From assembly GCF_003018255.1 (NCBI RefSeq), contig NZ_CP027440.1: DNA of 64,000 nucleotides; one strand, 5' to 3'. The position numbers and the translations under genes were made by a program. Source of the stretch: Escherichia coli (GTDB lineage Bacteria; Pseudomonadota; Gammaproteobacteria; Enterobacterales; Enterobacteriaceae). Positions 17,485 to 23,395 of this stretch are shown one piece after another (the stretch's first letter is position 1; the number at the start of each line of letters is the position of its first letter). Below the pieces are notes generated by a model. The model made no database searches. It saw only the letters and a list, made by a program, of their open reading frames with translations, and was not told where the DNA came from.

Positions 17485-18339
17485 ATGGTACTGATGATCG
17501 TCAGCGGACGTTCAGGTTCAGGTAAATCTGTCGCCCTGCGTGCGCTGGAAGATATGGGTTTTTACTGCGTGGATAACCTTCCCGTAGTGTTGTTACCCGA
17601 TCTGGCTCGAACCCTGGCCGATCGCGAGATTTCTGCCGCCGTCAGCATTGATGTTCGTAATATGCCGGAGTCACCAGAAATATTCGAACAGGCGATGAGT
17701 AACCTGCCTGACGCTTTCTCACCGCAACTACTGTTCCTGGATGCCGACCGTAATACCTTAATTCGTCGTTACAGTGACACGCGCCGACTGCATCCGCTTT
17801 CCAGCAAAAACCTGTCGCTGGAAAGTGCTATCGACAAAGAAAGCGATTTGCTGGAGCCTCTGCGTTCGCGAGCGGATCTGATTGTCGACACCTCAGAAAT
17901 GTCCGTTCACGAGCTGGCTGAAATGCTGCGTACCCGTCTGCTGGGTAAACGTGAACGCGAACTGACCATGGTCTTTGAGTCTTTCGGCTTCAAACACGGT
18001 ATCCCTATCGATGCAGATTACGTCTTTGACGTGCGCTTCTTGCCGAACCCGCACTGGGATCCGAAACTGCGTCCAATGACAGGTCTTGATAAACCTGTCG
18101 CCGCGTTCCTCGACCGCCACACAGAAGTACACAATTTTATCTACCAGACGCGAAGCTATCTTGAGCTATGGTTACCTATGCTGGAAACCAACAACCGTAG
18201 CTACCTGACGGTCGCCATTGGTTGTACCGGCGGGAAGCACCGTTCGGTGTATATTGCAGAGCAACTGGCAGACTACTTCCGCTCGCGCGGTAAAAACGTC
18301 CAGTCACGCCATCGTACGCTGGAAAAACGTAAACCATGA
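17485..18339 (+). CDS. rapZ: RNase adaptor protein RapZ (YhbJ), P-loop NTPase
   Basis: 284 aa; Walker A GRSGSGKS in [23 protein letters not shown]. Confidence 0.93.
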
Positions 18340-18608
18340 CCGTCAAGCAAACTGTTGAAATCACAAACAAGCTGGGCATGCATGCCCGGCCTGCAATGAA
18401 GCTGTTTGAATTAATGCAAGGTTTTGACGCAGAAGTGCTGTTACGTAATGACGAAGGTACCGAGGCCGAAGCCAACAGCGTTATTGCACTGCTGATGCTG
18501 GATTCTGCCAAAGGACGGCAGATTGAAGTTGAAGCGACCGGTCCACAGGAAGAGGAAGCACTGGCCGCCGTTATCGCCCTCTTTAATTCTGGTTTTGATG
18601 AAGATTAA
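18336..18608 (+). CDS. npr: Phosphocarrier protein NPr (HPr paralogue of the nitrogen PTS)
   Basis: 90 aa, [25 protein letters not shown]...; start overlaps the rapZ stop. Confidence 0.93.
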
Positions 18609-18754
18609 TCTTCATCACTTTGACATTCAAATCCCTTCAAGCTCCCCCCGACAATAAGAAAATCACGTACTGAAATCGTTCTCAATCAACGTCATTTGTA
18701 CATTTTGTGCGCTTTTCACTTTCAGAAGAACCTTAAGAAAACCTTAAGAAGCAT

Positions 18755-18771
18755 TGTTTAGGTTTCGTTTA
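18755..18771 (+). promoter_or_regulatory. PhoP box (direct repeat TGTTTA-N5-CGTTTA) in the yrbL promoter
   Basis: TGTTTAGGTTTCGTTTA lies about 12 bp upstream of a -10-like CATACT and about 50 bp upstream of the yrbL ATG; fits the (T/G)GTTTA-N5-(T/G)GTTTA PhoP consensus, and yrbL is a known PhoP target. Confidence 0.7.
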
Positions 18772-18821
18772 AGTTAATCGACCATACTGGAGATCGTCAG
18801 AAAATATTTCCAGGAGATGGC

Positions 18822-19454
18822 ATGATTCGCTTATCTGAACAAAGTCCCCTGGGCACCGGAAGACATCGGAAATGTTATGCGCATCCGGAAGATGCCCAAC
18901 GCTGTATCAAGATTGTCTACCATCGTGGCGATGGTGGCGATAAAGAGATCCGCCGTGAGTTAAAGTACTACGCGCATCTTGGTCGCCGGTTAAAAGACTG
19001 GAGTGGAATACCGCGCTATCACGGTACCGTTGAGACGGATTGCGGAACCGGTTATGTCTACGATGTGATTGCAGATTTTGACGGCAAACCCTCCATTACG
19101 CTGACCGAATTTGCTGAACAATGCCGTTACGAAGAAGACATTGCACAACTGCGCCAGCTACTGAAACAGCTGAAGCGTTATTTGCAGGATAACCGTATCG
19201 TGACGATGTCGCTGAAGCCGCAGAATATCCTCTGTCACCGCATCAGTGAGTCAGAGGTTATCCCCGTCGTCTGCGACAACATTGGTGAAAGCACATTGAT
19301 TCCACTGGCGACCTGGTCGAAGTGGTGTTGTCTGCGTAAGCAAGAGCGGTTATGGAAACGATTTATCGCCCAACCGGCGCTGGCTATTGCCCTGCAGAAA
19401 GATCTGCAACCTCGTGAGAGCAAAACGCTGGCCCTCACTTCGCGCGAAGCTTAA
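18822..19454 (+). CDS. yrbL: PhoP-regulated protein YrbL (kinase-like fold, function unknown)
   Basis: 210 aa, [56 protein letters not shown]... Confidence 0.9.
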
Positions 19455-20179
19455 TCCAGCTGGTGCTGTTGCATAAACGACTCACCGCCTAACTGATACA
19501 TCTGCCGTAAAATCCACGCCTGACGGCTACGCACGTAGCCCGATGGCGCGGAGACTTTGAAACGAAGTGGATTAGGTAATACAGCAGCCAGTAATGCAGC
19601 TTCCGAGCGGGTAAGTTTGCTCGCGGGTTTGTGGAAATAACGTTGTGCCGCAGCTTCGACGCCAAACACACCGTCGCCAAATTCGGCGATATTCAGGTAA
19701 ACCGTCAGGATACGCTTTTTGCTCCAGACAGTTTCTATCCCCAGCGTTAATCCAGCTTCCAGCCCTTTTCGAACCCAGCTACGCCCATCCCATAAAAAGA
19801 GATTTTTGGCTGTCTGCTGAGAAATCGTTGACGCACCGCGAATACGGTTTTCATTGCGCTCGTTGTGGGCCAGGGCTTGCTCAATGGAGGCGACATCAAA
19901 GCCCCAGTGCTCAGGAAACTTCTGATCTTCTGCGGCAATCACCGCCAGTCCCATCCACGGCGAAATTTGATCCATACTGACCCAGTCAGAATGTGCCACG
20001 TAACGAAAATTGCCATGCAGCCAGGCGCTGACTTGTCGCTCGGCCATTACCGCTGAGAAAGGAACAGGCGCAACGCTAAACAACGCGATGCCCCCGCCCC
20101 AGAAAACGGCGAGGACAACCATTAACCGCAGAAGAAAACGGCGAACGAAACTAAACACCGTTAAGCGGCTTTTACTCAT
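19451..20179 (-). CDS. mtgA: Monofunctional biosynthetic peptidoglycan transglycosylase
   Basis: 242 aa; N-terminal membrane anchor and GT51 transglycosylase motifs ([28 protein letters not shown]). Confidence 0.93.
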
Positions 20180-20829
20180 TCAGCCAGAACCAGCACGCGG
20201 GAAACCAGCTTATCAATGCCGCTCGCCGCTTCTGCAATGTTCTGCGCCAGCATATATGCCGGGGTGGTGACAATCTTATTGTCTTCATCAACCACGATAT
20301 CATCGACAGGACATGGCACATGCTCCGCGCCCATCTCTTCCAGCACTTCTGCGGTATCGATATCAGTACCGATGGTCAAACGCAGCGGGAAATCGAAAAT
20401 TTTCGGCAGCATCGCCGGGGCAATACACATAAAACCAAGCGGTTTTCCGGCCTGATGCATCGCTTGTGCCAGCGCCTTTAATTCACGGTCAACGGTGCAT
20501 TCGCTACCAAGACTGGCAAAATTGCTTAAATTCTTCGCCGCGCCAAAACCCCCCGGCACAATCAACGCATCCAGTTCAGCGGCATCGGCCTGGGCCAGAG
20601 GACGGATTTCACCGCGCGTTATTCGTGCCGCTTCAATCAGCACATTGCGCGTTTCCGTCATCGCTTCGCCCGTTAAATGGTTGATAACATCAACCTGCTG
20701 CTTATCCGGTGCAAAGCAGACCGCCTGCGCACCGCTGCGTGAAATAGCTAACAACGTCAACACCGCTTCATGAATTTCAGAACCGTCATAGACGCCGCAT
20801 CCGCTCAGAATTACGCCAATTTTCTTCAT
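20176..20829 (-). CDS. elbB: DJ-1/PfpI-family protein ElbB (YhbL)
   Basis: True start [21 protein letters not shown] (ATG confirmed at 20827-20829 on the minus strand), 217 aa. Confidence 0.9.
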
Positions 20830-20946
20830 TGTGATCATCCTTTCGCAATTGACTGAAACACATTAATTTTTTTAATAAAAATGCTACGCATCACACATTT
20901 AACTGATTCATGTAACAAATCATTTAAGTTTTGCTATCTTAACTGC

Positions 20947-21067
20947 GTGCGGCCTGAAAAACAGTGCTGTGCCCTTGTAACTCATCATAATAATTTACGG
21001 CGCAGCCAAGATTTCCCTGGTGTTGGCGCAGTATTCGCGCACCCCGGTCTAGCCGGGGTCATTTTTT
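20947..21067 (+). ncRNA. arcZ: ArcZ (RyhA/SraH) Hfq-dependent small RNA
   Basis: Sequence GTGCGGCCTGAAAAACAGTGCTGTGCCCTTGTAACTCATCATAATAATTTACGGCGCAGCCAAGATTTCCCTGGTGTTGGCGCAGTATTCGCGCACCCCGGTCTAGCCGGGGTCATTTTTT matches ArcZ as I recall it, including the terminator hairpin and U-tract; located between elbB and arcB and convergent with arcB. Confidence 0.9.
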
Positions 21068-23395
21068 AGTGGCTTTTGCCACCCACGCTTTCAGCACTTC
21101 TACGTCGTGACGCCACTCTTCTTTCATCTCTTCAATCCATTCACCGACGTTATCTTCCCAGGCAGGAAGGTCAGGAGACTGAATTTGCTGACCCAGCTGT
21201 TGCAGATGGCGTAACCCCACTGACCCCGCCGCACCTTTAATTTTATGTCCTTCCTCAACAATGCCTTTTTTATCCTGCGCCGTCAGATTCGACTCCAGCA
21301 CGCTGACATAGCCCGGCATCATCTTCTCAAACACCGCTAACCCGTCGGTGATCAGCTTCGGTCCTACAAGTGCGAGATACTGTTCCAGCATGGGAATATC
21401 GAGCAATGCTTCTGATTTACTGTTCTCTTCTGTCGTCACCGTACTCTCCTCATCATCCTGGGTATCCCAGAATTTCTTGATCATCGCGGTTAGCGCCGGA
21501 ACCGAAAGCGGCTTACTCAGCACATCATCCATTCCAGCATTGAGGTACTCTTGTTTGTCTTTCAGCACGTTAGCGGTTAAGGCCACCAGCGGCGGTAAAT
21601 CCTCGCGCGGATAACGCTTCGTCAGTTCACGAGAGATATCCAGCCCGGTCATATCTGGCAACTGAATATCCAGCAACACCAGGTCGTATTCGCCCGGTTT
21701 AAACATCTCCAGCGCCGCCTTGCCGGTCATGGCGACATCAACGCTGTTACCTAATTTTTCCAGCACAGAACGCGCAACAATCACGTTCAGTTCAATGTCT
21801 TCCACCAGCAGCACATTCAGCGCCGGTAAAGGCATATCGTCTTCATCAAACGCATCATCGACCTCTTCTGCTACCGACGGTGCGTGGATCGTCAACGTAA
21901 AGGTTGAACCTTTGCCCTGTTCGCTGGTAACCGTAATATCGCCGCCCATATTTTTCGCCAGACGACGAGAAACGGCCAGACCAATACCGGTGCCGGTGGC
22001 AGGTTTACCGCCATGACTGTCTTTCACCTGGTAATACATGGCGAAAATTTTATCCAGCTCATCCTGCGGAATGCCGATACCAGAGTCTTCCACTTCAAAA
22101 TGCAGCATATCGCCTTCATCGTAGCGCACGCGCACGGTAACCTGGCCTTGCTGGGTGAATTTGACGGCGTTACTGATGAGATTCCACAGGATCTGCCGTA
22201 AACGCGTCCCGTCGGTAATGACCTGATGCGGTAATGGCAGCGTAGGCTCCAGGTTAAAGCGCAATCCTTTTTGTTGCGCCTGCAATGCGGAAAGATTTTC
22301 CAGATCGGCAAGGAAGCTGGTGAAATCAACCGGCTGATTATCAAGCTGGACCTTACGCCGTTCCATCTTATCCATGTCGATAATATCGTTGAAGATATTC
22401 CCGAGCGTGACGGCCGAAACATGGATGGTTTTGAGATATTTTTCCTGCTCGGCGGTGAGTTCGGTATCCAGCAGAATGCGGCTCAGGCCGACGATACCAT
22501 TCAGCGGTGTACGCAATTCGTGACTGATGGTGGAGATAAACGTCGTTTTGTCGCGGCTGGCCCGTTCAAGCGCATCCTGATACCGCTTACGCTCGGTAAT
22601 GTCGCGACCAAAGCCCATCAAACCGTGACGTTTACCCACGCGGTCGTAGTACGGCACTTTACGGATTTCAAAGCAGGCTTTGCGTCCGTCGGGATAATCC
22701 AGCCACTGCTCATAGGTCAGTGACACATTATGACGGAACACTTTTTCATCGGTTTCAATGACTTTCGCAGCGGCTTCCGGTGAGTAAACATCAGCAGGTT
22801 TCAGATGAACCAGTTGTTTTTCGCTTTTTCCGGTCAGCAGCTCCATCGCGCGGTTACAGCCGGAAAACTCTTTATCTTCGTTACGATAAAAAACCAGGTC
22901 GGGTGAAGCGTCAAGGAAGGAACGTAAGAATGAGGATTGCTGCTCGAGCTGAATTTGTGTCTCTTCGCGCTCTTTGATTTCAATTTTCAGTTGGCCGAAG
23001 GTTTCCTGCAGTTCTGCTTCCGCTTTTTCACGAACGGCGATTTCCTGATTTAGCTGGGCAATATTATCTTTTAACTGAACGTTGAGGCTCAAATCGCGCT
23101 CGCGCATCTCCTCCAGTTTTTGCACCAGTCGTGACAGACGTTGTCGTGACTCCTCCAGTTGCTCGACGACCACCGATAGAAAGTAGACCGCCCACGGCGT
23201 AATCAGCAAACCAAAGAAGATAGAACGAATAACATCAATGCTTTCGACCTGACCATGCAGCACCATGGTTACCGCCATTTGTACCACAATGGCAAGAACG
23301 ACGAGGGCCAGCGCCAGTAACATTGAGAAGCGCACCAGACCTAACTTCATCATCAGGTCAACATAATACTGCGCCAGCAGACGAATTTGCTTCAT
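21059..23395 (-). CDS. arcB: Aerobic respiration control sensor histidine kinase ArcB
   Basis: 778 aa; two N-terminal transmembrane segments, leucine zipper, PAS, HisKA (SHELRTPLN), receiver and HPt domains. Confidence 0.97.
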   Translation of the reverse strand: MKQIRLLAQYYVDLMMKLGLVRFSMLLALALVVLAIVVQMAVTMVLHGQVESIDVIRSIFFGLLITPWAVYFLSVVVEQLEESRQRLSRLVQKLEEMRERDLSLNVQLKDNIAQLNQEIAVREKAEAELQETFGQLKIEIKEREETQIQLEQQSSFLRSFLDASPDLVFYRNEDKEFSGCNRAMELLTGKSEKQLVHLKPADVYSPEAAAKVIETDEKVFRHNVSLTYEQWLDYPDGRKACFEIRKVPYYDRVGKRHGLMGFGRDITERKRYQDALERASRDKTTFISTISHELRTPLNGIVGLSRILLDTELTAEQEKYLKTIHVSAVTLGNIFNDIIDMDKMERRKVQLDNQPVDFTSFLADLENLSALQAQQKGLRFNLEPTLPLPHQVITDGTRLRQILWNLISNAVKFTQQGQVTVRVRYDEGDMLHFEVEDSGIGIPQDELDKIFAMYYQVKDSHGGKPATGTGIGLAVSRRLAKNMGGDITVTSEQGKGSTFTLTIHAPSVAEEVDDAFDEDDMPLPALNVLLVEDIELNVIVARSVLEKLGNSVDVAMTGKAALEMFKPGEYDLVLLDIQLPDMTGLDISRELTKRYPREDLPPLVALTANVLKDKQEYLNAGMDDVLSKPLSVPALTAMIKKFWDTQDDEESTVTTEENSKSEALLDIPMLEQYLALVGPKLITDGLAVFEKMMPGYVSVLESNLTAQDKKGIVEEGHKIKGAAGSVGLRHLQQLGQQIQSPDLPAWEDNVGEWIEEMKEEWRHDVEVLKAWVAKATKK

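Follow-up and report, generated by a model that had tools for sequence, protein, structure and literature searches.

The tail-to-tail overlap of yrbL and mtgA in Escherichia coli: shared stop codons and transcript ends inside the partner gene

The yrbL/mtgA junction and its genes

In the Escherichia coli chromosome, the gene order rpoN-hpf-ptsN-rapZ-npr-yrbL faces mtgA-elbB-arcB, and within the window (the whole 64-kb stretch of DNA that was analysed) the two innermost genes of that arrangement end in a single shared tetranucleotide (Table 1), in the context ...GAAGCTTAATCCAG.... The same 4-bp overlap is annotated by RefSeq both in strain 104 and in MG1655 (yrbL 3348452-3349084, mtgA 3349081-3349809), and the description of overlapping stop codons given in the initial annotation was therefore confirmed by the letters of the window, by its open reading frames and by two annotated genomes. 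An enumeration of stop-codon combinations further demonstrated that 4 nt is the shortest tail-to-tail overlap possible, those of 1-3 nt being impossible, and that only TTAA, CTAA, TTAG and CTAG permit it. The junction carries one of these permitted tetranucleotides between conserved genes with native C-termini, and thus belongs with the 4-nt tail-to-tail stop overlaps that form a described class (Fukuda 2003 and Kingsford 2007, as these are summarized in PMC3887535). The overlap is a concrete feature of two real genes and does not depend on any statistical pattern.

The product of the yrbL reading frame matches the YrbL equivalog model NF007671 over its full length (1-210 of 210, E 5e-120), and that of mtgA matches the MtgA (monofunctional transglycosylase) equivalog TIGR02070 (E 2e-86). 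Judged from the overlap of the elbB stop codon with the mtgA start, transcription of mtgA probably begins ahead of elbB, with mtgA as the distal member of an operon. Same-strand ATGA overlaps of this kind, typical of translationally coupled operon partners, are present both there and at rapZ/npr (18336-18339).

Control of yrbL by PhoP, which the initial annotation had assumed, is borne out by a box upstream of the gene (consensus (T/G)GTTTA-N5-(T/G)GTTTA, except that the second half-site begins with C), by motif and EMSA evidence of PhoP binding at the yrbL promoter of Shigella, and by a 50-fold fall of yrbL in a Shigella ΔphoPQ mutant (mutant/wild-type ratio 0.02) (PMC5775216), all of which place the gene in the PhoP regulon; yrbL has, in addition, been used as a PhoP reporter in E. 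coli. The second half-site of that box (18766, +) reads CGTTTA in the window strain and in strain 104, and TGTTTA in K-12, E. whittamii and other Escherichia. In E. coli 2009C-3133 (locus L026, 401-1098), the promoter region of yrbL carries an IS1A insertion, placed between npr and yrbL, and the yrbL/mtgA junction is intact.

Table 1. Features at and around the yrbL/mtgA junction, in window coordinates
Feature	Coordinates	Strand	Description	Basis
PhoP box upstream of yrbL	18755..18771	+	TGTTTAggtttCGTTTA; K-12 has TGTTTAggtttTGTTTA	motif
yrbL CDS	18822..19454	+	210 aa; PhoP regulatory network protein, kinase-like fold family PF10707	ORF, NF007671, RefSeq annotation
Shared TTAA tetranucleotide	19451..19454	none	yrbL TAA at 19452-19454 (+); mtgA TAA on the minus strand, read as TTA on the plus strand, at 19451-19453	window letters
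mtgA CDS	19451..20179	-	242 aa; monofunctional peptidoglycan glycosyltransferase, distal gene of elbB-mtgA	ORF, TIGR02070, annotation
Hairpin in mtgA antisense	19513..19552	+	-22 kcal/mol, no U-tract; yrbL 3' end at its 3' foot	fold
Candidate Rho loading (rut) region in yrbL read-through RNA	19715..19794	+	C-rich, G-poor (31 C, 10 G)	predicted rather than mapped
elbB ORF	20176..20838	-	stop overlaps mtgA start (ATGA 20176-20179)	ORF, profile, annotation

Distribution and history of the overlap

Within E. coli, a 151-bp segment centred on the junction was found, ungapped and at 95% identity or more, in 5425 of 5426 complete genomes. The 4-nt overlap was kept in all nine Escherichia loci examined, each with TTAA: five of E. 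coli (MG1655, strain 104 and three divergent lineages), E. whittamii, Escherichia sp. E1V33, E. albertii, and an Escherichia lineage with an 81%-identical YrbL. The same tetranucleotide recurs in Superficieibacter, and Siccibacter turicensis displays the permitted variant CTAA (yrbL TAA, mtgA TAG). In other taxa the two stop codons are separated, by 1 bp in Pluralibacter, 7 bp in Citrobacter sp. NCU1, 16 bp in 'Erwinia sp.', 47 bp in Cedecea, 74 bp in S. enterica, 83 bp in S. enterica subsp. arizonae and 104 bp in C. amalonaticus. The long spacers (74-104 bp; Salmonella and C. amalonaticus) are made of palindromic DNA, and that of S. enterica contains GTAGGCCGGATAAGACGTTCACGTCGCCATCCGGCA, a canonical REP, and folds at -31 kcal/mol. 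An intergenic region at this junction has also been reported independently in a Salmonella paper, as the site of a cassette insertion. In Citrobacter sp. Awk 4, two extra minus-strand genes, encoding a 306-aa protein of unknown function and a 462-aa MFS-type transporter, follow yrbL at the place that mtgA holds in other taxa (locus L008, 3742-6075), and the junction can thus accept inserted DNA.

Throughout these comparisons the tail of MtgA (..FMxxHQLx*) lies at the homologous end in every taxon, as does that of YrbL (SREA*) wherever it is recognisable, which demonstrates that the overlap is not the extension of an open reading frame but a spacer-less state of the junction. In this respect the locus differs from Kingsford's model, as that is presented in PMC3887535, in which a gene is extended to the next available stop; the ends of yrbL and mtgA are conserved, and it is the spacer that is absent or has been lost. 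The overlap is, then, the compact state of the yrbL/mtgA junction in Enterobacteriaceae. That state is probably close to ancestral, and the palindromic, REP-type DNA that makes up the longer spacers in Salmonella and C. amalonaticus seems to have been inserted later. The near-complete conservation within E. coli and its invariance across Escherichia are compatible with selection, but equally with no more than the constraint that two stop codons impose.

Directly upstream of TTAA, at 19438-19449, lie a perfect 12-bp palindrome, CTTCGCGCGAAG, and a HindIII site. The palindrome was dropped as a candidate element, as the other Escherichia species do not keep it as such; the SREA codons probably account for it.

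Where the two transcripts end

Both genes lack an intrinsic terminator, there being no spacer that could hold one. A consensus terminator scan of positions 18300-21200 returned no terminator-like site near the junction, its hits being confined to two weak minus-strand hairpins (inside npr and mtgA) and the terminator of ArcZ; folding of 200 nt across the junction, on each strand, gave structures no better than those of shuffled sequences (z about -0.7), and no GC-rich hairpin with flanking A-tract and U-tract, such as would constitute a bidirectional intrinsic terminator, was found between the two stops. The eight convergent junctions of the 64-kb region, counted from the annotation of strain 104 (which shares 99.5% identity with the 64 kb of the window), have spacers of 127, 54, 62, 43, 59, -4, 47 and 40 bp. 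A GC-rich hairpin is present in the spacer of all seven others (40-127 bp), several of them flanked by runs of A and T, and by their sequence several of the seven resemble classic bidirectional terminators; yrbL/mtgA is the local exception. Bidirectional terminators and REP elements between convergent genes thus have their counterparts at the window's other seven junctions and, at this junction, in the palindromic spacers of Salmonella and C. amalonaticus, whereas the yrbL/mtgA junction of E. coli has neither. A second convergent overlap in the window, this one with an intrinsic terminator and of known biology, is formed by the ArcZ sRNA (20947-21069, +; Rfam RF00081, 120.8 bits), whose terminator hairpin (21041-21059) is followed by a T-run.

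Published transcript-end data for MG1655 (Adams et al. 2021, eLife, PMC7815308) were transferred to the window, with which the MG1655 sequence is colinear (50 substitutions and no indels in 5 kb; offset 3,329,630). These data, in which Rho scores were computed over 800-nt windows and the peaks therefore denote regions, not points, demonstrated: (i) that on the plus strand a stable Term-seq 3' end lies antisense to mtgA at K-12 3349181/2 (window 19551/2), 97 nt past the yrbL stop, followed by a Rho termination region that peaks at K-12 3349699 (window ~20069), about 615 nt past that stop, with upstream/downstream reads of 280/21 in the absence of bicyclomycin (BCM) and 613/672 in its presence (Rho score 14.6, p 3e-54); and (ii) that on the minus strand a Rho termination region antisense to yrbL peaks at K-12 3348808 (window ~19178), about 273 nt past the mtgA stop, with corresponding reads of 85/38 and 46/66 (Rho score 3.2, p 2.3e-5). 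Bicyclomycin therefore raises read-through on both strands in these published MG1655 data, as is expected of Rho-dependent termination. Two further claims of the initial annotation, that no intergenic terminator exists and that both transcripts enter the opposing coding sequence, accordingly hold, the former on the scan, the folding and the lack of room, and the latter on the Term-seq end and the bicyclomycin-sensitive regions (PMC7815308); that both transcripts might stop short of the overlap is contradicted, since the MG1655 ends lie inside the partner genes. Read-through of both genes implies that the two mRNAs are complementary over at least about 100 nt.

The composition of the read-through RNA is in keeping with these results. 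Its C/G ratio reaches 3.1 on the plus strand, downstream of the yrbL stop, and 1.4-1.5 on the minus strand, at about 19390-19270, and C-rich, G-poor untranslated RNA is thus found upstream of the Rho termination region. The 3' end of yrbL coincides with the foot of a hairpin that is devoid of a U-tract, a pattern that fits exonuclease trimming of Rho-terminated RNA according to the general account of the Term-seq authors (PMC7815308). When that hairpin was examined for covariation in 18 taxa, 78% of cells were paired, with a single compensatory pair, and the signal was not significant, 80-236 of 500 shuffles reaching the observed values; the hairpin is located in conserved coding sequence. Genome-wide, antisense regions are the largest class of Rho termination regions (51.5%; PMC7815308). 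The locus resembles Rho-dependent antisense and 3' read-through termination (Peters 2012, to the extent that it is cited in PMC7815308) in its bicyclomycin-sensitive ends antisense to the partner gene, its C-rich, G-poor RNA and its 3' end at a hairpin without a U-tract, and displays no notable difference from it, being one of that 51.5%. A literature search for yrbL together with 'Rho-dependent' returned no match.

A further Term-seq 3' end is found inside the yrbL reading frame, 130 nt from its beginning (window ~18951, +; K-12 3348581), where it is strong in two conditions (scores 5938 and 10894) and was scored as not Rho-dependent (Rho score 1.23). It is possibly a premature termination or processing product of the PhoP-induced transcript.

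Possible consequences of the overlap for mtgA

Two published data sets report on mtgA under conditions in which yrbL expression falls. In Shigella ΔphoPQ, with its 50-fold decrease of yrbL, the two lists of genes that changed at least 2-fold (mid-log and early stationary phase) contain neither mtgA nor elbB, these being thresholded lists only (PMC5775216). In four RNA-seq contrasts of E. coli B, yrbL fell 8-14-fold (log2FC -3.77, -3.05, -3.56 and -2.99; padj ≤6e-6); mtgA was unchanged in the same contrasts (-0.03, +0.01, +0.10 and +0.12; padj 0.77-0.98), in a source that is silent on strand-specific counting, and elbB gave -0.06 in one of them (FE vs CON). Antagonistic expression of the two genes was thus not seen in either table, both of which set basal against reduced yrbL rather than full low-Mg2+ induction. 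The suggestion of the initial annotation that yrbL expression sets mtgA transcript levels is therefore not borne out, and a weak or condition-specific effect is possible.

The arrangement is probably best explained as genome compaction that is tolerated because Rho polices it, with no functional coupling of the two genes, rather than as a switch from PhoP to the cell wall. By this explanation each RNA polymerase runs on beyond the stop codon of its gene into the antisense strand of the partner, and the release of ribosomes at the stop exposes untranslated RNA; Rho, which would load on C-rich, G-poor stretches, at sites such as the candidate region of Table 1, then terminates transcription, halting yrbL read-through within roughly 600 nt and elbB-mtgA read-through within roughly 270 nt; and exonucleases would presumably trim the yrbL transcript back to the hairpin 97 nt inside mtgA. 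We infer that the overlap itself is selectively neutral, a reading against which it counts that the ExcludonFinder survey (Sanmartin et al., NAR 2025, PMC12288877) reports greater synteny for excludon pairs taken together.

The same survey lists yrbL-mtgA among 165 convergent excludons, called in at least 50% of 58 MG1655 transcriptomes, and thereby provides one argument for the opposite reading, that the pair is an excludon in function, with PhoP-induced yrbL transcription repressing mtgA through head-on polymerase collisions, RNase III cleavage of the duplex, or both. Such a mechanism would lower a peptidoglycan glycosyltransferase whenever PhoP is on. It could draw on transcripts that do overlap, on a layout conserved across Escherichia, on an excess of yrbL over mtgA of about 15-fold (baseMean 771 vs 52 in E. 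coli B) that would allow yrbL to dominate, and on the precedent of mscL-arfA. The survey call, however, is almost automatic for overlapping coding sequences and carries no information on effect size; p19 capture of double-stranded RNA is uninformative on convergent pairs; read-through is limited by Rho; the layout is lost in Salmonella and in some Citrobacter, where palindromic DNA or whole genes lie between the two; and mtgA stays off the changed lists, or flat, when yrbL drops 50-fold or 8-14-fold. Repression of this kind is accordingly considered unlikely. A narrower version, in which the spacer-less junction of Escherichia is kept because strong activation of PhoP (by low Mg2+, acid or antimicrobial peptides) sends yrbL polymerases across the greater part of mtgA and lowers MtgA, to an extent invisible in LB-type data sets, is a still more speculative proposition; if true, it would link envelope stress to the synthesis of peptidoglycan glycan chains. 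Should coupling of PhoP to mtgA be demonstrated at full induction, a class already known would gain a further member.

Alternatively, both transcript ends might be set by collision of the polymerases instead of by Rho, as has been proposed for bidirectional terminators between convergent genes. Head-on and trailing collisions do end convergent transcription in vitro and in SEnd-seq data, and these two genes face each other without a spacer; yet the mechanism requires a stem-loop that places collisions between the gene boundaries, and the junction has none. Collisions should, moreover, be rare given the weak expression of mtgA, and read-through responds to bicyclomycin on both strands, all of which makes this explanation highly improbable. 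An artefact of annotation, in which one frame ends earlier or is not a gene, has next to nothing to commend it: mis-called gene ends do sometimes create overlaps, and the last 11 residues of MtgA fall outside the TIGR02070 model, but YrbL covers its own model end to end, and in 18 taxa, spacer-bearing ones included and with identities as low as about 60-70%, both tails terminate at equivalent positions, so that a misannotated stop in either gene was rejected.

Under the preferred reading, of compaction policed by Rho, yrbL/mtgA is a 'convergent excludon' by layout, and this layout leaves mtgA mRNA without measurable change under the conditions examined to date. Its transcripts overlap, as mapping of the published 3' ends and of the data obtained with and without bicyclomycin indicates, and its intergenic distance is short (here, negative), as in the MG1655 convergent excludons of PMC12288877; unlike excludons as defined, it shows no mutually exclusive expression in two data sets. 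It likewise resembles mscL-arfA, a convergent E. coli pair with overlapping 3' regions that is also listed by ExcludonFinder, and differs from that pair in that mscL-arfA has an experimentally demonstrated regulatory effect (PMC10070815). The arrangement of yrbL and mtgA is real, annotated, catalogued, mechanistically ordinary and already known. Its value is as a clean, well-documented example of convergent E. coli genes that leave no room for a terminator, in which Rho ends each transcript inside the partner, and as an illustration that the layout of an excludon is not in itself evidence of regulation.

Several additional observations concern the YrbL family. E. coli made resistant by in vitro selection to TAT-RasGAP317-326, an antimicrobial peptide, acquired substitutions in YrbL (E42G and, in an earlier study, V149L), and the E42G single mutant displayed a limited rise in that resistance (PMC11842939). 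A 420-bp contig (NZ_JUET01000135.1) in the assembly of Tannerella forsythia ATCC 43037 codes for YrbL residues 1-129, 99% identical to those of E. coli, and is almost certainly E. coli contamination. In a contig from a human gut metagenome (locus L023, 2501-3675), two convergent YrbL-family genes, of 196 and 195 aa, overlap by 4 bp and adjoin GT4 glycosyltransferases and a gene of the Kdo kinase family (PF06293); these neighbours, along with the name 'protein kinase-like' given to the protein in K-12 RefSeq, hint at an LPS-core-related kinase role for the YrbL family.
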